A program made the position numbers and the translations under genes. The notes under the pieces were generated by a model. It was not told the DNA's origin, searched no databases, and saw only the letters and a list, made by a program, of their open reading frames with translations. 64,000 nucleotides of DNA from Naegleria gruberi (Eukaryota), in assembly GCA_000004985.1 (NCBI GenBank), contig GG738902.1. One strand, given 5' to 3'. Shown in pieces: positions 5,078 to 62,366 of the stretch. Within the stretch, counting starts at the first letter, position 1; every line of letters starts with the position of its first letter.

Positions 5078-6553
5078 ATGAAAATTATTGAACAAGAAGA
5101 TATGTTAGAAGAAGAACTTGTTGTAATCCATTTGGATACTTCCATTTTCAGTCCACTCCTCAAATCAACAACAGACAACCAATCCAAATTATTAAAGCAC
5201 TGGTGTATGGAGGCAGATCTATTCAAATATTCCATCATTACACCTCTGGAATATTGTATTGAACAACCAAACCTTAATGGACAGTATTGCAAAATTAGTA
5301 AAGCTCCCTATGTATACTCTAAGAAACTACCATTGGAAGAGGAGGGATCGAAATGGATATGGGGTATGGATTCGATATTTGTACCAGATTATGTTGGTTC
5401 AAAACATGGCTCCTTATTGAGTGTTAAACAATCAACAAATAACGATGAAATAATTTGTGAAAAAGAAACTGAAAGATCAGATGCAACTATTCCAGTTGTT
5501 GTAGAGATGAGAAACAATAGAGAGTTTATGATGGAGAGTGTACAGAAAAATGGTTTATTACTTTATTATGCTCATCCTGATTTACTTTTTGATCAAGAAT
5601 TATTATTGGAAGCCATAAGAAATAATGTATCTGCTTTCCAATATGTTCCATATAATCTCAGAAGAGATGAACAATTCTTAAAAAGAGCTATTGAAAAATG
5701 TGGAGATGTGTTTTTATACCTTACTGGAGAGTGGAGAAAGAGAAATGATTTATACGAAATATCTTTGAGAACATGTGAAAACAAGCTAAAACTATTCGAA
5801 AGATTGGATCCTTCAATTAGAATGAATTATGCACCCAGTATGGTATCAAACTATTGGAGAGCAATCTATTTCCTCAACCCTTCAGACTCTCGATACTCTC
5901 AACTAATCCAGATTATTCTCAATTCGAATCAAGTTTCTGACTCTGAATTAATCAATTCAAATTTAATAACCAACAGGAAAGATTTATGGAAATATCTCGA
6001 TATTTCTTATAGGGCACTTATCTTGGCTAAAAGAGAGTGCATTGATAATGAAGCAATCATTAAGGCATTGAGAAGTAATATGATCATTTCCAACTATCTA
6101 TCGTATTACCAATGGAATGCAATCAAGGAAAATCATTCTCTTATAATGGAAATAATTCAAAATCCAATAGAATTAACAATTGAAGCTGCAACATTTATTA
6201 TTAAAAATTCTAATCGGGATAATGTCAGAGCACTCGTAAAAAGATATCCTTTTCTAGCAGAAAAGGTTACTGAGGTGAAAATGATGTTTGATCCTTATAT
6301 TCTTAGATATTTGCCGTCAAACAAACAATATGAAACTATTCGAAAGTGTGCCAAACTAATAATGGATGAAAAAGAGTATTTCGAAACAGTAGGATATTAT
6401 TTCCAAGGAAGCAGTGCCCTCGCCTGGATTTTAAGAGAAAGATTTACCATATCACATCCTGGCTTGGTCATTCCTTACCATAGATTTGGAAAAAAACTCG
6501 ACTGTCAACCAATTTGTTGGGATTTTGAGTTGTGGTATGAGAGTATCAACTAA
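5078..6553 (+). CDS. DUF4116-repeat protein
   Basis: ATG after an A-run. It carries repeated approx. 35-aa units of the form YAxxxLRxDxEFxLxAIxxNxxAFQYVP, typical of DUF4116 repeats. A paralogous repeat block sits in the gene at 56540..58231. Confidence 0.55.
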   Translation: MKIIEQEDMLEEELVVIHLDTSIFSPLLKSTTDNQSKLLKHWCMEADLFKYSIITPLEYCIEQPNLNGQYCKISKAPYVYSKKLPLEEEGSKWIWGMDSIFVPDYVGSKHGSLLSVKQSTNNDEIICEKETERSDATIPVVVEMRNNREFMMESVQKNGLLLYYAHPDLLFDQELLLEAIRNNVSAFQYVPYNLRRDEQFLKRAIEKCGDVFLYLTGEWRKRNDLYEISLRTCENKLKLFERLDPSIRMNYAPSMVSNYWRAIYFLNPSDSRYSQLIQIILNSNQVSDSELINSNLITNRKDLWKYLDISYRALILAKRECIDNEAIIKALRSNMIISNYLSYYQWNAIKENHSLIMEIIQNPIELTIEAATFIIKNSNRDNVRALVKRYPFLAEKVTEVKMMFDPYILRYLPSNKQYETIRKCAKLIMDEKEYFETVGYYFQGSSALAWILRERFTISHPGLVIPYHRFGKKLDCQPICWDFELWYESIN

Positions 6554-6781: not shown

Positions 6782-9700
6782 TTACAAAAATCCTTTGACT
6801 TCATCATACCCTGGTTGATCAATTTCTTCAGCAAGTTCGCCTGACTTGTATTGTTCATAGTGCTTTGGTGTTAAAAGTCCCATATCTACCAACTGTGTAA
6901 GGAGTGGCTTAATGCTTTCAAACTTATTACGAATAAAACAGGCATATTGACTGATACCCAAAATTGTAATTTCATCTCCATCTTCGAGCTTTTCCTTGAC
7001 TTGATCCTTCAGTAATGCTTGGAATGATTCAACGTTTTGAACTGGATCTTCATGCAATGATGAATTAAGGATACCAGAGATGATTTGTTCGATAGACAAT
7101 AAATTAATGTAATCATCAACTTCTTCCTTTTCGTTAATCTTCTTATTGAAGAAGACAGATGGTTCAAAACATCCATAACAGTTTTCTTCAACCAATTCGC
7201 AGAATTTGGAGTAGTAATCACCATTTGGCTTCAATACGTTCATAATATCCATGACACTATTTACCAAGTGCTTTCCAGCTTCAACCTCACTCAAAACAAG
7301 ATGGTTTTCAAGTTCATCTTCATAGTTAGCAAGAATCTTCTTCAAATCATCATTTAATTCACATTCAGACTTGACAGAAGCAAAAACATTCTTGAGAATA
7401 TCAAATGCGTGTTCTTCTTGCAATGGAGCATCTTCATCCAAAACAACTGTAACCAAAATATCGTACAAACAGTTAAAAGGCAAAACTTTTTCGAAAAGGA
7501 GTCTACCAAAGAGTTTACCAGTATATGGGAACAACTCTGGAATATCAACGTATGTTTCTTCTTGGACAGATGAAAGCAAGTATGAAATCAAGCCATCAAC
7601 GAAAACTGTCTCAGTAACAAGTGGTTCAGCACCTTGAGTCAATCTCTTGCACAACTTGACACAATCGCTGAGTTCAGCATCTCTACTATTTTCACAAGCA
7701 CAGAGGGCAAGAGTCTTAGCAAAGTGGTGTGATTTGAACAAGTTTTCTTTGGTGATAGTTTCAATTGTATCTTCAATCTCTCCTTCTTCAAAGAAGTTAT
7801 TAATAATTCTCTTGGTCTTTTCAGTTGTTTCCTTAATTTGTTCTTCAGTTTCTTCTGGAACAACTTCAACTTCTTCAATAACTTCTTCTTCTTCTTCTTC
7901 ACTGACTGGTTCCTTTTCTTCTTCATCTTCCAAAAGTGAGAAAGAATTCAAATCCTTCTTGCTTTGAGTTGGAGATGGAGCCTTTGTGATCAAGTTACCA
8001 CCACCTGGAGCCAAAGTCTTCTTAGCATCCATCTTTCTGTATCTTTCAGCTTGCAAACCAGATTGCTTATTATTATTATTATTATTATTATTATTGTATA
8101 CAGTCTTAGTCTTGACAGTTGTCTTTCTATTGTGGTGATGCTTTTCAATCTTCTTAATTTGATCCATTTGTTGCTTAACAGCATCATCTCTGGCTTCTTG
8201 TCTAGTCTTGGTAGCCTTTGTCTTTTCAATTCTGGCAACCCAGTTATTAATTCTCATATCAATAACATCTCTAAGCATAAATCTGAGACGAGAGGCAAGG
8301 TTATCCTTATCTTGAGCAAGGGTTTCCATTTTACCAAAGTAATAATTGACATATTTCTTTGACTTTTCATGATCCAATTTGCTACCAATAGTAGTCAATA
8401 AACGACACAAAAGTTCAATATCATCAGAAGATGGATATGGAGTTGGATTAACGAGCAATCTCTTGATAACTTCATGCATAATCTTTTCACTAAGCATATC
8501 TTGCAAATAAAGTTCACCAATGAAAATCATGTTACCAACTTTCTTCTTTCTCAATAAGAATTCCTTTTCTTCAACTTCCTCAGGGCTCAAGCCAACTTGA
8601 GCTGCCTTTTCAAGTTCTTCCTTCTTTTCATTTTCGAATTCTTTTTGACATTTGTTCAATAACAATCTCTTGAATTGTTTAGTATTTTCTTCTCCAATTC
8701 TTTCCTTAAGTTCGTTACTTAAATCAGCACACAACTTGGCATAGAGAGCAGAGAAGTTTTGAAGGTTAATAGCGAAAATGAAAATTTGATCAATAATACC
8801 ATTCAAAACAGCTTCATCACCTGGCTTCTTAATACAAGCATTTAAGAATTCAATCTTAAGTCTTTCATAGTTTTCAGGTGTCAATCTGTTAAGAATAAAT
8901 TTAACTTCATCAACAATGACTTCATCCTCAGGCTTATCCTTTGACAATTTCAAGGCATTTTGAGACTTTGAAAGCTTTTCATAAGAACCTTGCTTTCTAT
9001 TTGTTGCTCCTTTTCCACCACGAGCACCTCCTCTATTATTTTCGAATCCACCACGTCCTCCTCTTGAACTGGCTCCTCCACGAGTGGTACCACCTCTTCC
9101 ACCTTGGCCTCCGCCACGTCCACCACCTCTACCTTGACCACCTTTGTTGAATCCACCAGCCATAGCCATTGATGATGAAGCGCCCTTTGAAATAAGGAAA
9201 ATTTCACCCATACCTTTAAGCTTTTCTGGAGCTTCAGTGCAAACATCTCTGAATTTAAGGAGATAATCTCTAGAGTAAACCTTGCTACTTGGTTCGGTTT
9301 CTCCTTCTTCCTCTTCCTCTTCACTAGAATCTTCCATTCCGTCGATTTCGCTTGGATCTTCCTTGATGACTTTATCTTCATCAATATCTGAAGATTTAGA
9401 ATTATCAAAGGTTTCTTCACCTTCAAGTGTTGTTGGAGTTTCAGTATATTCACTAATTGGTGTTTGTGGTGTTTCCAGTTCAGTTTGTTTTTCTTCAACT
9501 GGTGTAGCTTCCTCAGTTTGTTTTGGAGCTTCCTCAACAATTGGTTCAGTAGTAGCTGTTGTTGTTGCAGTTTCAGTAGTTTCAGTAGTTGTTGATATTG
9601 TTACTGGTGTTGTTGTTGTTGATGTTGTTGTAGCTTCAGTAGTTGAAGCTGTTTCATTTGATGACTTATCATCAAGAATATTAACCTCTTTACCACTCTT

Positions 9701-46818: not shown

Positions 46819-47170
46819 ATGAAGAGTTTCATATTCCTACTTTTCATCACAATTCACTATTGTTGCCAAATTATCAACGCCTCCAATCCGATAATCAATA
46901 CCAACGACAACGACAATATTAAATTTAGTAATATTAATAATAATAATAATAATAATATTAAATATATTAATATTAATAATCAGAATGAAATTTCCTTTCT
47001 ATTAATGCACACTGATGATATGCACTCACATTTCGAAGGCTCTGGTCCTGATTCCTCACTCAATGATCGGAGTGTGATGAATGGAGGAAATCAAGTGATC
47101 GGACATTATGCTCGATTATTGACATTGATAAGGAAATTGAAAAGCAAGTTTAAGAATAATTTATTATTGG
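46819..47170 (+). CDS. 5'-nucleotidase / calcineurin-like metallophosphoesterase, exon 1 (signal peptide plus metal-binding motif I)
   Basis: Signal peptide MKSFIFLLFITIHYCCQIINA. LLMHTDDMHSHFEG matches motif I. A GTAAGT donor follows at 47171. Confidence 0.7.
46931..46980. repeat. AT-only (AAT)n-like microsatellite inside the 5'-nucleotidase exon 1 (encodes NINNNNNNNIKYININN)
   Basis: Perfect AAT runs. Coding low complexity. Confidence 0.8.
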
Positions 47171-56539: not shown

Positions 56540-58231
56540 TTATGGAGTAATATTTTGCAAATAGAATGGATTGACAGTTGACCTTTGTTTTTTGTTTTCT
56601 GGGAGTGTTGGTGTTGAGGGAGTTGATGTGTTTAAGATATTTGTATCGTTTCTTTTGTGTTTCCTTCTACAGTAAAAATCTTTTGCTGCTTGTTGGATTT
56701 CAGGATGATTCTTGAAGGTTGTGGCATATCCAATAGTGATTGGATCTTGAGAAACAGCACATAATACAATATCTATTGTTTTTTCTAAAGCATATTCTAG
56801 AAGGTGGGGATTTCTCTTCAAGCATTCTTTGAGTAGGTCTATATATCCATCAAATTTGTTTGTAACATGCATGATGGCGCAAGCTGTTTCATCTGTTGCT
56901 ATCTTTACAAAATCCTTGTTCCATTTCAAGTGTTCAGCAGCATACTGTAGTAATAGCCCATCTTTTCGAATATACTTTTCCATAAATTCAGTCTTACTTG
57001 TTAAATCAGAATGAACATATTTCAAAAGGTGTACATCTTTTTCCAAAACCATTTCAACGAACTCTTGCTCTTTTCTAAGAGTTTCATGAGCAAACTTGAA
57101 AGCAATTGGATTGATCTCAATTAATTTCTGCATAAAATTCTTGTTATTTGCTAAGGAAAAGGAGTTATACTCTAACGCAAATTCTGGTCTAATTGTAAAG
57201 GCCATGATTGTAAAGCTCTTGAGAATCTCAGTAATATTTAAAGGTATCTCTTTTGAAGATTCTTCTTGAATTTTGTTGATTAATTCTTTCAGTTCGTTTT
57301 GATATTTCCAATTTTCTCCGTGGGAATAAAGTTCCAATAAGCAATCCCCAAAATTTTTCAAATCTTCAGCAAATGCTTGATTTTGAATTTTTGATTTGGT
57401 GAGGGTTTCTTTTGATTTAATTAAGGAGGTCAAAGACGCAGCATATTCCAGATCAATTAGAATTGGATCGTAAATTACATCGTACCCTCTTATAACTTTC
57501 GATCCAATCAGAAAGTTACTTAGCTTCAAATCATAATGTACATGCTCCATTTGCTGTAAATATTCTATAATGGAGGCCATTCTCATTGCAATTATCAAAA
57601 AGGATATTTCACTTAATGGCTTTGGAATATTTGACAAGTCACCATTTGGATAGAAAACCATATGATAACCCATGTAGGATTGAAAATCCTTATCATATGC
57701 ATCCATAAACTCAATGGCACGTTCATAACTAATAATGTTTGAGCAATTTTCTAACAACATTACTTTCTCAACCTCTCTCTTGACCTCCTTTTTCGGACCT
57801 TTGGTAATCTTTATCACTACTTTTTTTCCTTTCCATAGGGCTGTGTATAAGTGACTTCTTTGACCCTTTCCATATGACTTTAAATCTCCGTATCCTAATA
57901 TCTGTAAATAATTTAATATGAATCTCGTTTCATAATCAAAGAAAATCTTTTTCTGTTGTTTTGTGGTGTCAAAGTATTGCCACATCTCCTTCAAACAATC
58001 ATCATTCGCAATATTGACGATTTCTTTCTTGGAATCATCCAAATAGTAAAACCTGGCAATATAAGGATCTTGTTCGTCTAAAAGTTTTTCAAAATTTGTT
58101 TTAAATTCCATCAAGTTTAATTGTTTGAATTCCTTCGCACCAACAACTATGTGTGGTGTAGCATCATTAACAGACGTGAAGAAATACACTGTTTCATTGT
58201 CATAAACAGGGCTGTTACCATTTAGCAACAT
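56540..58231 (-). CDS. PB1-domain + atypical protein-kinase-like domain + DUF4116 repeats
   Basis: N-terminal ...IARFYYLDDSKKEIVNIANDDCLKEMWQYF is PB1-like. The kinase core has VVIKI (the VAIK Lys), HYDLKLSNFLI (HRD to HYD) and DLE in place of DFG. The C-terminal repeats match the 5078..6553 protein. Confidence 0.6.
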   Translation of the reverse strand: MLLNGNSPVYDNETVYFFTSVNDATPHIVVGAKEFKQLNLMEFKTNFEKLLDEQDPYIARFYYLDDSKKEIVNIANDDCLKEMWQYFDTTKQQKKIFFDYETRFILNYLQILGYGDLKSYGKGQRSHLYTALWKGKKVVIKITKGPKKEVKREVEKVMLLENCSNIISYERAIEFMDAYDKDFQSYMGYHMVFYPNGDLSNIPKPLSEISFLIIAMRMASIIEYLQQMEHVHYDLKLSNFLIGSKVIRGYDVIYDPILIDLEYAASLTSLIKSKETLTKSKIQNQAFAEDLKNFGDCLLELYSHGENWKYQNELKELINKIQEESSKEIPLNITEILKSFTIMAFTIRPEFALEYNSFSLANNKNFMQKLIEINPIAFKFAHETLRKEQEFVEMVLEKDVHLLKYVHSDLTSKTEFMEKYIRKDGLLLQYAAEHLKWNKDFVKIATDETACAIMHVTNKFDGYIDLLKECLKRNPHLLEYALEKTIDIVLCAVSQDPITIGYATTFKNHPEIQQAAKDFYCRRKHKRNDTNILNTSTPSTPTLPENKKQRSTVNPFYLQNITP

Positions 58232-58780
58232 TTTTTCTCTAAACCTCTAAAAAGGCTGATCACGTTCTAGTCATAATCATTCCGAAAAACTGATGGTTGA
58301 TCAGATGATTAAGATATGGAAGGATTAATTTTTGTTAAATTTTTTTTAAGAAATTCAAATTGAAAGACATATTATAAATTTGAGGCAACAAATTGTTTTA
58401 AATTAATTGAGAATAGGATTTATTTGTAAAATTGTAGGCTAATCCTTTGATTTCACCAAATCTTAGAATTTCACAACACTTCCTTTACTGTTTTGGTTGT
58501 TATAGAATTTGTATTTCGAAAGCATTAAATTGAAACAAACTGAAAGCTCAAAACATTCCACTCATCTATGTACTCACCGTTTCAATTTAATGCAAACACA
58601 AACAATTGACTGCTTTTATGTTGTTTTATTAAATTGTTTGAATAGGAATCTTTCAGCTTGCACTAATAACATGAAATCATCAAGTTATTTTGTTGGTTAT
58701 TTAAAAGAATCTCACGGAGGACAATATACCACTCCGAATCATCATCATCAACACAAAAAAATAACATTCAACACCTTGTG

Positions 58781-59593
58781 ATGCTCTCAAAGAAATTTCT
58801 TCTTCTATTAGTGCTAAATCTTCTTTCAATTGCTGCTTTACATGTTAATGCTGCAGGTAGTCAAGCTTTTTGCATTCACACACTTTCGGATGGAAGAACA
58901 ATTGACTTGAATAGAGCAACCAAATCATCAGCCGATTATTTCCTCTACGATAAGGATACCAATTATTACTTTTATATGAATATTTGCAAGGATGCACTCA
59001 AGAGTTGTGATGGACAAAGTTACGGAGGAGTTGCCTATACGAAAGATCCAGGAGCTGAGAGTGAATTTTGTGCAACCTACATGAGTGGATCAACCAGTGA
59101 ACAGAATTATCAAATTTCACTTATAAACTCACAGAAACCTGAATTGGGAGTTGTTTTAGTTGTGAGAGGAGGTGAAAAAGTCCTCACAAGAACACAACAA
59201 ATGAAAATTACAATGAATTGTGCAAAGAGTGTTGGAGATTTGAAATTTGTTCAGGAAAACTTTGTGGACTCGAATATTGTTTTTGAATTTTCATTGGATA
59301 CTCCAGCTGCTTGCATTGTAACTGATGATAATAATTTGGGAGGATTGGGATATTTGGGTTTAGCTCTCTTGTTGATAATTATTATCATGATTCTCTATTT
59401 TGCAATTGGATACATTGTAAATTGTCTTGCTTTGAATAAGGAAGGTGGTTGGTCCTATACTCAACTTCCTCAATTCAAATATTGGAAATTACTATTCCAA
59501 TTGGCTTGGGAAGGATGTTTATTTATCAAGGAAGGAATTCAAAGTTTAATTTTCAAATTTATTTTGAGAAGAGCAATTTATGATCAAATATAA
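58781..59593 (+). CDS. Type I membrane protein with a mannose-6-phosphate-receptor-homology (MRH)-like Cys-containing ectodomain
   Basis: Signal peptide, a six-Cys ectodomain with the C...Y...C pattern, a single C-terminal TM helix (GLALLLIIIIMILYFAIGYIV) and a short tail. ATG at 58781; the GTG at 58778 is a track artefact. Confidence 0.45.
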   Translation: MLSKKFLLLLVLNLLSIAALHVNAAGSQAFCIHTLSDGRTIDLNRATKSSADYFLYDKDTNYYFYMNICKDALKSCDGQSYGGVAYTKDPGAESEFCATYMSGSTSEQNYQISLINSQKPELGVVLVVRGGEKVLTRTQQMKITMNCAKSVGDLKFVQENFVDSNIVFEFSLDTPAACIVTDDNNLGGLGYLGLALLLIIIIMILYFAIGYIVNCLALNKEGGWSYTQLPQFKYWKLLFQLAWEGCLFIKEGIQSLIFKFILRRAIYDQI

Positions 59594-59646
59594 TTCTTTA
59601 TTTTCATTGTTTTCATTTAATATTCCGATATGACAAAGATGTTTAA

Positions 59647-60567
59647 ATGCCAAGCTGTCAAAGATCAAAAAAATGTTTCATGCAATGCTCCCACAGAACA
59701 ACAAACACCACACAACCACACCACAACAGGCAAGTAAATTATTTTCATTCCACTCTAATAATTAATCCAGATATTCCTTCGGATTGGGTATTAATTGGAG
59801 AGGGAGGTTTCGGAAAAGTTTACAAAGGTAAAAAGGATGGACAAGTTAAAGCTTTTAAAATTATTAACAACAAAGATGATGCACTCACTGAATTCACGAA
59901 TACTGCCACAGTTTCTGGTCATCATCATGTTGTCAAAATTTATAGTGCAACAATTATTACAAATCAATCTCTCTGTATTGAGATGGATTATTATGAGAAT
60001 GGTAGTTTGCATGATTATTTCATTAGAAAGAATAACAAACCTCCTTCTGCTAACATGATCAAGTCAATCATGACACAAGTACTTGATGCTCTCATGTACA
60101 TGAAACAAAATTTTAATATGGTCCACAGAGATATCAAACCAGGAAATATTTTGGTTAGGAGAATTGAAAATGATAGTATTGATATTTGTTTGGCAGATTT
60201 TGGAATGGCAAAGAATACTCCTGGTTTATCTGAGAATTCTTCATTGTCACGTGCTAAGGGAACTGAGGGATTTATTGCACCTGAAATATATAGGCCAATA
60301 TCTGAGCAACGTTACTCATTGGCATCTGACATTTTCGCTTTAGGTGCAACCTTATTTAAACTCATGACTCGAATTTCACTAAATGAGTTTCCTTATTTTC
60401 AATGGAGTCTGGATGAACCAACAAAAAGAAATCATTCATCAAAACTAGAAGAAATGATTTACAAAATGTTAAAAATCAACACCTCTACTCCACATGAATT
60501 AATCCAAAACATTTCGAAAATGTTCATTACAGATACAAAACTCGATTTTAATTGTGAAATACTTTAA
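59647..60567 (+). CDS. Ser/Thr protein kinase (kinase domain only, 306 aa)
   Basis: GEGGFGKVYKG, AFK, HRDIKPGNILV, DFGMAK and GTEGFIAPE are all present. Confidence 0.75.
   Translation: MPSCQRSKKCFMQCSHRTTNTTQPHHNRQVNYFHSTLIINPDIPSDWVLIGEGGFGKVYKGKKDGQVKAFKIINNKDDALTEFTNTATVSGHHHVVKIYSATIITNQSLCIEMDYYENGSLHDYFIRKNNKPPSANMIKSIMTQVLDALMYMKQNFNMVHRDIKPGNILVRRIENDSIDICLADFGMAKNTPGLSENSSLSRAKGTEGFIAPEIYRPISEQRYSLASDIFALGATLFKLMTRISLNEFPYFQWSLDEPTKRNHSSKLEEMIYKMLKINTSTPHELIQNISKMFITDTKLDFNCEIL
60539..60566. repeat. Left arm of a perfect 28-bp inverted repeat (partner at 60914..60941)
   Basis: aactcgattttaattgtgaaatacttta at 60539..60566 equals the reverse complement of 60914..60941. The left arm covers the last 9 codons and stop of the kinase gene. 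Confidence 0.85.
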
Positions 60568-60913
60568 ATTTACAATATTAAATGAATGAAAATAAAGAAA
60601 ATAAAGAATTATATTTGATCATAAATTGTTCTTCTTAAAAGATTTTGTGTGTTGTGATTTGTTTCTTGTAAATGAAAGAATTTTAACAGTTATTGATTCA
60701 CAGAGCTGTTCTCACTACTAACATTGTAACTCAAACAAAAGAGCGTTAATTTACGAGCTAGACATTCAGGATCTTTTTCCTATCGTAATCTTTCGATTGG
60801 TTCGCTAACCTCACCTTTGGAGAGTTCACTTAATTCACTTGTTAACTTTTTAACTTGATTGAAATTGTAATTACATAGCTGATTAAGTCTGTGTTCTTTT
60901 GCAGCTCTTCCAT

Positions 60914-60941
60914 AAAGTATTTCACAATTAAAATCGAGTTG
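60914..60941. repeat. Right arm of the 28-bp inverted repeat
   Basis: See the left arm. Spacer 347 nt. Confidence 0.85.
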
Positions 60942-61007
60942 GCAGAGATTTTTTATTATCAAATGTCAGCACGTCAAACTGCCAAAATTATAATCAAACG
61001 ATAAAAA

Positions 61008-62366
61008 ATGAATCACAAGCTGGTGGGCCAAGGGTCTTTGTCATCCAACAGGTTCTCATCCTCACCATCTAACCACAATCATCTCAACAAATTATTCCTT
61101 CTCCTCGTAACAATTTTCACAATTTTCTTTATTAATTTTTCCACATCGACCTTCATTCCACCGATCAATGAAATTCTTTCCGATCAAAAAGAATTTAACT
61201 CCTTGACTGGTTCTCCATCAAGTAGCCCCCCAGGTGCTAGCAATGTTGTAATTCTTCAATCACCTGGAGTTTACAATTATTCAGTTTATGATGATTTGGA
61301 TTTTTCATTCCATTTGCCTGCTTGTCCAGATTCATTGTACAGAAATAAGAATACTAATCAATTGGAATTAATTGTTCAATCACCATCTACTTTTTCATTA
61401 TTTATTGTTATTGCCTTTTCCTCACTTTTATTTGCTAGTATTGTTTTTAGTTCTTTCAATTCTGTTTTCTTACCTCATATTAGAAAGAGAATTAGAACAA
61501 GTTCAATTTCTAATAATTTGTGGATTGTTTACTTTGTTTTTGTTGGATTGAGAGCTGTTTTGAATGCAGTTCACTTTGGAAAACCAACAAGTTTGAGAAA
61601 GGACAGTAAATTCCTATATGCCATGACCATAGTAGGAATGATTCTTCATTCATTGACTGCCTACTTTTTAACACTTGCTTTGAATTATCAGAGAAAACAT
61701 AGAAGTGGATTTTCTGTGGAGGCAACAGGTAATAGTAGACTCTCCTCATTCCACCAACAAATTTACGAAGATAGAGAGGAAGAAAAATTACAATCAACAT
61801 TCCAGAGAAGAACTGCATGGATTAGGAAAATTGTGGTGAAGGGATTTTGGGTTATTTTCTCATTTGAATCATTGGCAACTATTTGTTTCACATTTTCATT
61901 GATTGCCATCTTTTTACGTGCCTTGAATGCCAACTCTGCTCAAAGTGGTGAGCTCTACAGATGGATTCAATTAGGAGCAATGCTCTTTCAAAGAATTCCA
62001 ATTATTATCATTTGCTTTTTAATTATCATGAGTGGATTCTTCTCAATTTTCAAGAAGAAATCTTCACAAGATCACAGAACAGGAGGTCCAACAATTTTCA
62101 CAAGAATTCTCATCTTTGTTGCCCTACTCTTAAATATTCCCAATGATCTTCCACTTTCGTATTGGAACTATTTCCTTTACGGATTGAGAGAGGATAGAAT
62201 TGTTCCTGGATGCATGTTCTATTTTGCAAGTATTTTCGATGCTGTCCTGTTGCTTTTCTTCTTTTCACTTGTCTTGTGGCTTTTTGTGATGATTATTGAG
62301 TTTAGAAGATATAGAAAGGAAACTGTTGAAGCAGCACTTTCTGATACCGTAGAGAATTTCGAATAA
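61008..62366 (+). CDS. Polytopic membrane protein, probable signal peptide plus 7TM topology (GPCR-like / lung-7TM-receptor-like)
   Basis: An N-terminal hydrophobic signal/anchor is followed by an ectodomain of about 90 aa and seven further hydrophobic helices. 452 aa. Confidence 0.5.
   Translation: MNHKLVGQGSLSSNRFSSSPSNHNHLNKLFLLLVTIFTIFFINFSTSTFIPPINEILSDQKEFNSLTGSPSSSPPGASNVVILQSPGVYNYSVYDDLDFSFHLPACPDSLYRNKNTNQLELIVQSPSTFSLFIVIAFSSLLFASIVFSSFNSVFLPHIRKRIRTSSISNNLWIVYFVFVGLRAVLNAVHFGKPTSLRKDSKFLYAMTIVGMILHSLTAYFLTLALNYQRKHRSGFSVEATGNSRLSSFHQQIYEDREEEKLQSTFQRRTAWIRKIVVKGFWVIFSFESLATICFTFSLIAIFLRALNANSAQSGELYRWIQLGAMLFQRIPIIIICFLIIMSGFFSIFKKKSSQDHRTGGPTIFTRILIFVALLLNIPNDLPLSYWNYFLYGLREDRIVPGCMFYFASIFDAVLLLFFFSLVLWLFVMIIEFRRYRKETVEAALSDTVENFE

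Follow-up and report, generated by a model that had tools for sequence, protein, structure and literature searches.

A 28-bp inverted repeat at a truncated kinase gene of Naegleria gruberi as probable templated filler of a rearrangement junction

Repair scars that contain inverted copies of nearby DNA

Inversion through staggered breaks, of the type known from Drosophila, leaves inverted duplications at both ends of the inverted segment. Such inversions yield two interleaved inverted pairs of single-copy flanking sequence, in the order L-p-q'-M'-p'-q-R, so that the duplicated blocks stand side by side at both ends. Inverted templated insertions, events that use several templates, and paired inverted inserts are documented for repair by MMBIR, foldback and alt-EJ (PMC8421209; PMC11724301; PMC7165422). 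In yeast and human, MMB-TI calls are made for templates within 100 bp or less, a limit that is a criterion of the search tool and not of the mechanism (PMC8421209).

Here we describe a locus of Naegleria gruberi NEG-M that resembles these scars. The analysed stretch, further referred to as the window, comprises 64,000 nucleotides of contig GG738902.1 (assembly GCA_000004985.1). It contains a perfect 28-bp inverted repeat, which in our view is likely to form part of a 100-nt patchwork of inverted copies produced by template switching at a rearrangement that truncated a protein kinase gene.

As in MMBIR/MMB-TI and FoSTeS, inverted copies of nearby DNA are located exactly at the breakpoint; the NEG-M scar also shares with MMBIR/MMB-TI the use of more than one template per event, short microhomology (2 nt, at the one switch point that can be scored), a larger rearrangement and copying errors (PMC8421209). 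The templates lie 346 nt downstream and ~950 nt upstream of the junction, whereas the MMB-TI definition covers templates at 100 bp or less. Scars of foldback (snap-back) repair and polymerase-theta alt-EJ resemble the locus in their short inverted duplications, paired inserts, error-prone synthesis and joining at a 2-nt microhomology (PMC11724301; PMC7165422). Foldback patches are, however, typically 5–34 bp long and adjacent to their template, while here one patch is 67 nt long and both are far from their templates. The patch order, with the copy of right-side DNA adjoining the left end, also differs from a simple two-sided foldback. Dependence on particular polymerases (Pol theta, Pol delta, translesion polymerases) is a further criterion for such scars; a search of the literature gave no paper that deals with polymerase theta in Naegleria. 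The interleaved pairs of single-copy flanking sequence are shared with staggered-break inversion, but here the blocks are neighbours at one place and not at two, with 7 nt between them, and the flanks disagree with that model. The scar is of a known kind and reveals no new kind of system. It is consistent with template switching of the MMBIR type or with alternative end joining like that by polymerase theta. What is directly seen is the anatomy, the position of the breakpoint against an unrearranged relative, and the native state of the gene A tail; which pathway acted, in which order the templates were switched and if the event was a simple deletion are matters of inference.

Anatomy of the locus

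The features of the locus are listed below (L003 is a contig from a close relative).

58781–59593, plus strand: gene A, encoding an ATG27/mannose-6-phosphate-receptor-like membrane protein (NAEGRDRAFT_73096, EFC39078.1; Pfam ATG27, E = 5e-11; 100% match to the NCBI protein)
59562–59624, plus strand: block a, the last 10 codons of gene A, its stop and 31 nt of 3' UTR, read as the template of the second patch; same sequence in L003
59630–60567, plus strand: kinase gene K (NAEGRDRAFT_73097, EFC39079.1; Pfam Pkinase, E = 2e-38), truncated after the kinase domain
60539–60540, plus strand: junction J1, 2-nt microhomology AA, common to the native kinase (as in L003) and the sequence beside the right arm
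60539–60566, plus strand: left arm k, 28/28 inverted copy of 60913–60940, read as filler patch 1
60567–60573, plus strand: AATTTAC, 7 nt between the patches, no template found by blastn within the window
60574–60640, plus strand: block a', 67 nt copied in inverted orientation from the tail and 3' UTR of gene A, with 4 substitutions and a 4-nt insertion, read as filler patch 2
60641–60912, no strand assigned: X, 272 nt, no match elsewhere in the window
60780–60962, minus strand: ORF of 60 codons with a TTG start and no ATG, beginning with the copied peptide, probably not a gene
60913–60940, plus strand: right arm k', presumed to have templated patch 1; it ends 67 nt ahead of the gene G start codon (ATG)
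61008–62366, plus strand: gene G, encoding a predicted membrane protein (NAEGRDRAFT_81406, EFC39080.1; exact NCBI protein match; no Pfam family)

The sequence AACTCGATTTTAATTGTGAAATACTTTA occupies 60539–60566 on the plus strand, and its exact reverse complement was found once more in the 64 kb. The initial annotation had called this repeat perfect and far beyond chance, and both statements hold. All 28 of 28 positions match between 60539–60566 and 60913–60940 (blastn-short E-value 5e-10), and none of 100 dinucleotide-preserving shuffles gave two arm matches, even with 3 mismatches allowed. The coordinates require small corrections: the right arm had been placed one base too far, at 60914–60941, and the distance between the arms is 346 nt instead of 347 nt. 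The left arm, described as nine codons plus TAA, in fact runs from 2 nt of a Lys codon through 8 codons (LDFNCEIL) to no more than the TA of the kinase stop TAA (60565–60567), which is completed by the first A of AATTTAC (60567).

A second, longer inverted repeat was overlooked. Its core pairs 59562–59617 with 60585–60640 (52/56), and extension across a 4-nt indel gives 59562–59624 versus 60574–60640 with 59/63 matches. From left to right the blocks run a-[920 nt]-k-[7 nt]-a'-[272 nt]-k', and the two pairs are interleaved, not nested. When microsatellite-like and weak AT-rich repeats (at most 88% complementary) are set aside, k/k' and a/a' are the only inverted repeats of at least 24 nt in the window. 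The location of two such copies, unique in 64 kb, only 7 nt apart favours a single event.

The tail of gene A reads ...ILRRAIYDQI*, and the orthologues from N. fowleri, N. lovaniensis and a metagenomic relative finish with ...FKYIL(R/K)RxVYN(A/V)(I/L); this C-terminal tail is native. Since it is conserved in the orthologues of N. fowleri and N. lovaniensis, a is taken as the template and a' as the copy. N. lovaniensis and a metagenomic heterolobosean have only gene A in common with the window, and hence their synteny is uninformative on the junction.

The unspliced ORF of the kinase spans 59647–60567. The total length of the indels between NEG-M and L003 (21 nt) points to a probable true model with exon 1 at 59630–59729, a 51-nt GC-AG intron at 59730–59780 and exon 2 at 59781–60567. 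The NCBI model is 100% identical but spans the last 194 aa only, and the deposited protein thus lacks its N-terminal part. The NCBI protein ending with LDFNCEIL comes from the same assembly as the window.

Segment X has no blastn or tblastx match within the window, and a search for RNA genes found no tRNA and no Rfam family above the gathering threshold, the only hits having E-values above 1. It presumably is native sequence of the right-hand partner in the rearrangement and belongs to the DNA upstream of gene G, which is the new downstream neighbour of the truncated kinase. No relatives of gene G were found in the JGI metagenome scan. A scan for bacterial promoters and terminators, which are not relevant to a eukaryote, showed no enrichment.

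The breakpoint and the proposed origin of the filler

The unrearranged state was found in L003 (ENA ERZ929261; run ERR1078381, PRJEB11402), a metagenomic contig that is the sole contig from a relative covering the junction and ends 480 nt past the breakpoint. Its alignment with 58594–60540 contains 15 mismatches in 1947 aligned bases (99.2% identity). The match stops at the second base of the left arm (60540), and from 60541 on the two sequences diverge completely. The kinase ORF of L003 is longer by at least 164 codons and is open up to the contig end, with a probability of ~3e-6 of being open by chance. Read in frame, this extension has a codon-usage score of 0.20 (true genes: 0.26 ± 0.10), and negative scores were obtained in every other frame. 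As the extension both stays open and has Naegleria-like codon usage, the long kinase is read as coding and ancestral; a paralogue of the kinase has a long C-terminal extension too. The extension showed no homology to the window and contained no Pfam domain, and the lost part of the kinase is therefore not within the 64 kb. Since the match with L003 ends at the edge of k, where the kinase ORF continues, the LDFNCEIL* tail of the NEG-M protein is not native. The 28-bp repeat has its left edge at the breakpoint, as it must if k is filler; any other origin of k would make this a coincidence.

The same comparison bears on the possibility that the junction is an artefact of cloning or assembly of the NEG-M draft, produced by chimeric joining at 60540 or by the collapse of mixed haplotypes. 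L003, the only independent sequence, backs the window up to 60540 and no further. Yet the k-a'-X-k' block of 402 nt would be shorter than one read in an assembly that is a Sanger draft, and a 28-nt repeat would be too short to mislead an overlap assembler. Moreover, a chimeric join is not expected to hold inverted copies of both flanks, microhomology and slippage errors. We consider an artefact very unlikely. In principle, L003 itself could be chimeric at the A-run, but its in-frame ORF of 164 codons argues the contrary.

The initial annotation had also proposed a MITE or foldback-type element whose terminal inverted repeat captured coding sequence. An element at 60539–60940 overlapping the kinase end would account for perfect 28-bp termini 346 nt apart and a non-coding interior. 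Nevertheless, no target-site duplication is present: the flanks are ...CAGATACAAA and GGCAGAGATT... for k/k', and ...AATTTA and GATTTTG... for a/a'. The arms and the interior are single-copy within the 64 kb (no third copy of the 28-mer was found elsewhere in the window with 3 mismatches allowed), and a 22-mer from the arm had no match in one JGI metagenome scan. The supposed interior starts with a copy of the tail of neighbouring gene A, and the left end is the breakpoint, beyond which L003 has unrelated coding sequence in place of an empty site. The direction of capture is the opposite of the one suggested: the C-terminus of the L003 kinase differs from this point on, and it is non-coding DNA upstream of gene G that became the last 8 codons of the NEG-M kinase. 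A mobile element is thus hardly credible here.

Templated filler explains these observations by the following series of steps. In the NEG-M lineage, a break would have occurred within the kinase gene after the codons for ...ITDTK (60540), and the broken end would have been joined to the DNA now upstream of gene G, from about 60641, with a loss of at least 164 C-terminal codons. Before sealing, a free 3' end may have been extended by template switching, producing 100 nt of filler (60541–60640). The first patch would be a 26-nt inverted copy of 60913–60938, entered via the AA microhomology, which gives the 28-bp inverted repeat; 7 nt would then have been inserted, followed by the second patch, in which 67 nt from the tail and 3' UTR of the ATG27-like gene were copied in inverted orientation and with errors. 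In this way the filler would by chance have added 8 codons to the truncated kinase and closed it with a TAA that forms where patch 1 ends; it would also have brought canonical poly(A) hexamers, which are the reverse complement of the T-rich 3' UTR of gene A. When 60539–60640 was removed in silico, the kinase read through 5 codons (RFCVL*). The initial annotation had listed the footprint of an inverted duplication among its explanations; this was right in that the left arm is an inverted copy, but, judged by the comparison with L003, it would be part of the filler left by the rearrangement, beside another inverted patch taken from the upstream gene.

Microhomology could be scored by three-way alignment at one of the four switch points, J1, where it amounts to 2 nt. 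A likeness of the kinase end to the beginning of X at 60640/60641 (GATTTT...TTGTGA) is at chance level, being equalled by 62% of random windows.

Block a is identical in NEG-M and L003, yet a' shows 4 substitutions and a 4-nt slippage-like insertion. The number of changes expected from strain divergence is ~1 or fewer, and the Poisson probability of at least 4 is ~0.006–0.07 for expectations of 0.7–1.5. This error load fits low-fidelity copying. Alternatively, the divergence of a' (6%) could indicate an older event or two separate events, given that k/k' are identical and the two pairs may differ in age. Two or more independent small events might be, for example, a staggered-break inversion followed by a local inverted duplication, or the insertion of a'-X-k' (60574–60940) after a native kinase stop. 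For the latter, an ancestral K–G spacer of 73 nt is conceivable, as tandem spacers of 24–54 nt occur in the genome. An insertion behind a native stop is, however, contradicted by L003, since the tail encoded by k is non-native and homology ends at the edge of k. Staggered-break inversion predicts p-q'...p'-q with p beside q', as opposed to the observed a-[kinase]-k-7nt-a'-[X]-k', and two independent events 7 nt apart are unparsimonious. Separate events are therefore improbable, though less so than the artefact or the mobile element.

Consequences for the transcript and the kinase gene

Block a' carries, on the plus strand, ATTAAA at 60577 and AATAAA at 60591 and 60600, so that one ATTAAA and two AATAAA hexamers are located 9–37 nt past the kinase stop. 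The 3' UTRs of N. gruberi, for which AAUAAA is the main determinant, have a median length of 39 nt (PMC11529991). Given this median and the positions of the hexamers, the mature kinase mRNA should end ~300 nt short of the right arm.

The repeat had also been interpreted as a long-range stem in the 3' UTR. A functional 28-bp stem, formed in the 3' UTR of the kinase or in RNA that reads through, might act on stability or translation or serve as a Dicer substrate. The RNA folding proposed by the initial annotation was performed: if 60500–60980 is one RNA, the stem dominates the fold (MFE −100.2 kcal/mol, z = −3.1). Such a stem is, however, a trivial by-product of the duplication. The pairing is not conserved, as L003, 99% identical, has no left arm at this site; the presence of both arms in a mature transcript is not expected with poly(A) hexamers so near the stop; the interleaved pairs would form a pseudoknot and not nested stems; and no Rfam family matches. 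A functional stem is accordingly a most unlikely explanation, and the long-range stem of the initial annotation is unsupported.

The scar might have been co-opted after its formation, although we give this little credence. The kinase 3' UTR is complementary (~45–50 nt, ~93%) to the 3' end of the ATG27-like mRNA and could act as a trans-acting natural antisense, while a read-through RNA would contain the perfect 28-bp hairpin; either could feed RNAi. If so, the tandem genes A and K would act like a convergent overlapping pair, their expression being coupled by the RNAi machinery of Naegleria.

On the minus strand, LDFNCEIL had been reported to end the ORF at 60780–60962. The peptide is instead near its start (residues 9–16) and is followed by 44 more codons, with TAT (Tyr) at the place of the kinase TAA. 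One may ask if minus-strand positions 60962–60609 form a new chimeric gene, with a 5' part derived from the copied 28-mer and an end (10 codons, stop and 3' UTR) that stems from gene A. Both copied coding pieces do share one minus-strand frame, an in-phase GTGAGG...ACAAG intron of ~150 nt could remove two intervening stops, the ORF has a codon score of 0.21 once the k part is left out, and the 41-nt gap to the kinase stop resembles that of convergent gene pairs. Against this, the frame contains no ATG, the sole ATG (60913) opening a 23-codon ORF in another frame, and two in-frame stops precede the A-like tail. Frame sharing has a 1-in-3 chance, and the score does not stand out from those of off-frame windows free of stops (95th percentile 0.32). 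No homologues were found among 5.8 billion or 1.8 billion protein sequences. No protein is annotated at the ORF, and the UniProt and GenBank numbers of A, K and G are consecutive. We find a chimeric gene barely plausible. The single match obtained for the ORF, among 1.84 billion representatives, was a tandem-repeat pseudo-protein with 10/24 matches repeated 8 times and was rejected as spurious.

Two corrections of the annotation follow: the tail LDFNCEIL stems from the scar, and the kinase model in the database is N-terminally short. Repeats of this kind should be treated with caution and not taken for mobile elements or RNA structures.

The locus is a clean natural case of multi-template inverted filler at a gene-truncating rearrangement in a deep-branching free-living protist, and the unrearranged state survives in the near-identical relative L003. 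It points to template-switching repair of the MMBIR/alt-EJ type in Heterolobosea, the pathway being one that we infer. One scar can supply a truncated gene with both a stop codon and poly(A) signals. Of the 8 kinase substitutions between the strains, 7 are at third codon positions, and the scar-supplied stop and poly(A) signals may explain the persistence of the shortened kinase.

Inverted repeats at the kinase locus

An NCBI "predicted protein [Naegleria gruberi]" from a 305,921-bp scaffold matches the kinase ORF at 100% identity, and the G+C content is 30–37% along the whole window. The features of the locus are as follows.

58781–59593: ATG27-like gene NAEGRDRAFT_73096, upstream of the kinase
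59562–59624: segment a
59647–60567: kinase ORF (NAEGRDRAFT_73097, EFC39079.1)
59730–59780: kinase intron, 51 nt, GC-AG type (GCAAGT...CCAG), in the frame-preserving model described below
60539–60566: left arm k
60574–60640: a', inverted copy of a
60641–60912: segment X
60913–60940: right arm k'
61008–62366: NAEGRDRAFT_81406 (gene G), downstream of the kinase
Order: a, kinase gene body (920 nt), k, 7 nt, a', X (272 nt), k', 67 nt, ATG of gene G

Directly upstream of the ATG27-like gene, a 563-aa protein (56540–58231, minus strand) carries a degenerate kinase domain and, after it, three DUF4116 repeats. The exact sequence of this ORF is absent from the protein collection, and hence the deposited model, if any, differs.

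The 28-mer AACTCGATTTTAATTGTGAAATACTTTA of arm k has a perfect reverse complement in k'. The repeat described in the initial annotation is thus present, but its right arm had been placed one base too far to the right, and the arms are separated by 346 nt rather than 347. No shuffle of the window contained two matches to the 28-mer even with three mismatches permitted, in agreement with the earlier view that a 28/28 match is beyond chance; the repeat is real and highly non-random. Arm k begins with two bases of a Lys codon, spans the eight codons for LDFNCEIL and ends in the first two bases (TA) of the TAA stop; it does not hold nine codons and a complete stop as first described.

Interleaved with this pair is a second, longer inverted repeat, a/a', matching at 59 of 63 positions with a 4-nt insertion in a'. 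Segment a contains the last ten codons of the ATG27-like gene, its stop and 31 nt of 3' UTR; a' starts 7 nt past arm k. All other inverted repeats of at least 24 nt in the 64 kb are either microsatellite-like or weak (at most 88% complementary) AT-rich matches. Most other "inverted repeat" matches in the window stem from (TTA)n/(TAA)n microsatellites at 8067–8095 and 46926–46970.

Comparison with a close relative

The second member of the 90%-identity cluster of the ATG27-like protein comes from a 2,451-bp contig (L003) of an ENA metagenome assembly (ERZ929261, run ERR1078381), a N. gruberi strain with 99.2% identity over aligned bases. Positions 1–1971 of L003 align with 58594–60540 of the window with 15 mismatches and 5 indels in 1,947 bases, and 11 of 13 coding substitutions fall in third codon positions. 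These counts mark a very close strain, with the kinase and ATG27-like genes under purifying selection. The ATG27-like gene has a 3-nt in-frame indel at ~59322. Four further indels (7, 9, 1 and 4 nt, 21 nt in sum) lie between the ATG at 59630 and 59729, and only one kinase gene model preserves the frame across them: exon 1 at 59630–59729, then the intron and exon 2 (59781 onward). The 194 aa of the deposited kinase model, XP_002671823.1, begin at an internal Met (~59983), whereas the kinase domain begins near 59790.

The unrearranged state is represented by this one contig, which covers the left side and 480 nt past the breakpoint. Its homology to the window ends at 60540, the second base of arm k. 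At this point the window reads ...ITDTK-LDFNCEIL*, whereas L003 has ...ITDTK-KRIESIMELFPQSQ... and an open frame that continues for 164 further codons up to the contig end (chance probability ~3e-6). The codon-usage score of this extension is 0.20, compared to 0.26 +/- 0.10 for real genes of the window, while its other five frames score negatively. P0002 (515 aa), the closest paralogue, likewise carries a long extension at its C-terminus. Together these observations indicate that the long kinase form is ancestral and the window's kinase truncated, and that the "kinase tail" in arm k is not native kinase sequence. The lost part has no counterpart within the 64-kb window. The kinase domain is complete: the Pfam match reaches residue 278 of 306, and subdomain XI-like sequence extends to ~293. 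The AA at 60539–60540 is common to L003, the window and the sequence adjoining the right-arm template, and constitutes a 2-nt microhomology at the junction.

A MITE or foldback element, suggested previously, would account for an inverted repeat. It is disfavored, as the left end marks a breakpoint where L003 has unrelated coding sequence and not an empty site, no target-site duplication was found at the flanks, and no additional copy exists in the 64-kb window.

Gene order around ATG27 differs among N. gruberi, N. lovaniensis (contig L001) and the heterolobosean of metagenomic contig L002. The L002 ATG27 homologue is 53% identical, and a tRNA-Val(AAC) gene lies ~100 nt downstream of it (5797–5870, minus strand).

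The putative repair event

The 28-bp repeat is most readily explained as one half of a templated-insertion scar with two patches, located at a kinase-truncating rearrangement. Since the left edge of k is at the breakpoint and a second inverted patch follows 7 nt on, one repair event is the simplest account of both patches. The broken kinase gene would have been joined to DNA whose present start is ~60641, the join holding a 100-nt patchwork filler (60541–60640) of inverted copies from both flanks of the new junction, the right-hand template lying 346 nt and the left-hand one ~950 nt away. Possibly, the 3' tail of the right-hand end copied the tail of the ATG27-like gene, then snapped back on itself and copied the 28-mer, and the extended tail annealed to the kinase at its ...CAAAA end; this order fits the observed patch order and the terminal TT/AA pairing. 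It is just as possible that a tail of the left end acted as primer and invaded the duplex. Known outcomes of repair by MMBIR-type template switching, by foldback priming and by alternative end joining include inverted templated insertions, events with several templates and, at breaks, inverted insertions in pairs (PMC8421209; PMC11724301; PMC7165422). An inversion with staggered breaks predicts a block order different from that seen, and an assembly artefact at the junction is unlikely given that the block spans only 402 nt and has repair-type features.

The ATG27-like proteins of N. fowleri, N. lovaniensis and a metagenomic relative share the C-terminal tail ...FKYIL(R/K)RxVYN(A/V)(I/L), which includes a Y-x-x-hydrophobic motif; therefore 59562–59593 is native and 60574–60640 is the copy. 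The copy has four substitutions, two of which produce the tandem CTTTATTTT, and a slippage-like 4-nt insertion, yet its template does not differ between the window and L003. At most one substitution is expected since the strain split (from ~2% third-position divergence; Poisson P(>=4) ~0.006–0.07 for expected counts of 0.7–1.5). Low-fidelity copying is thus indicated, or alternatively an event of greater age.

Transcript ends and annotation

The filler adds eight codons to the truncated kinase, and the first base of the 7-nt spacer completes its TAA stop. Past the stop, the plus strand of the filler has ATTAAA at +9 and AATAAA at +23 and +32. Each AATAAA is a TTTATT of the copied T-rich 3' UTR read on the other strand; one pre-existed in the template and the other was made by copying errors. 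Poly(A) sites in N. gruberi are determined mainly by AAUAAA, and its 3' UTRs have a median length of 39 nt (PMC11529991). Given these hexamers and this length, the mature kinase mRNA is predicted to end at ~60605–60635, ~300 nt short of the right arm. Folding 60500–60980 as a single RNA trivially predicts a 28-bp stem, the 3'-UTR structure proposed earlier; however, k and k' probably do not share a mature transcript, the pairing is missing in L003, the two repeat pairs interleave instead of nesting, and Rfam gave no matching family.

AATAAA frequently overlaps the TAA stops of window genes, beginning 2 nt ahead of the stop (e.g. 4796, 6553, 18535, 24543, 44268, 53314, 62366), in agreement with the dual-use stop/poly(A) signals that PMC11529991 reports for N. 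gruberi. Adjacent long ORFs, convergent pairs above all, are only 24–77 nt apart (e.g. 18503/18535, 21579/21641, 35408/35454, 38020/38067, 44268/44292), so poly(A) signals of both strands must fit one tiny spacer.

The minus-strand ORF 60962->60780 had been said to end with LDFNCEIL; the peptide is at its start, and the ORF continues through TAT in place of the kinase TAA. As in a chimeric gene, one frame holds both copied coding pieces, and the sequence allows for an in-phase intron. However, the ORF has no ATG, is unannotated and has a codon score inside noise, and searches of 5.8 billion and 1.8 billion proteins gave no homologue, their one hit being a tandem-repeat artefact: the match of the 797-aa P0125 to this 60-aa ORF (E = 3e-8) sums eight weak matches. 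P0125 consists of ~65-residue tandem repeats and is probably a translated satellite.

The scar is a well-resolved new case of a mutational process that was already known. Its interest for Naegleria genome evolution and DNA repair is modest, and the annotation of the locus can be corrected using it.
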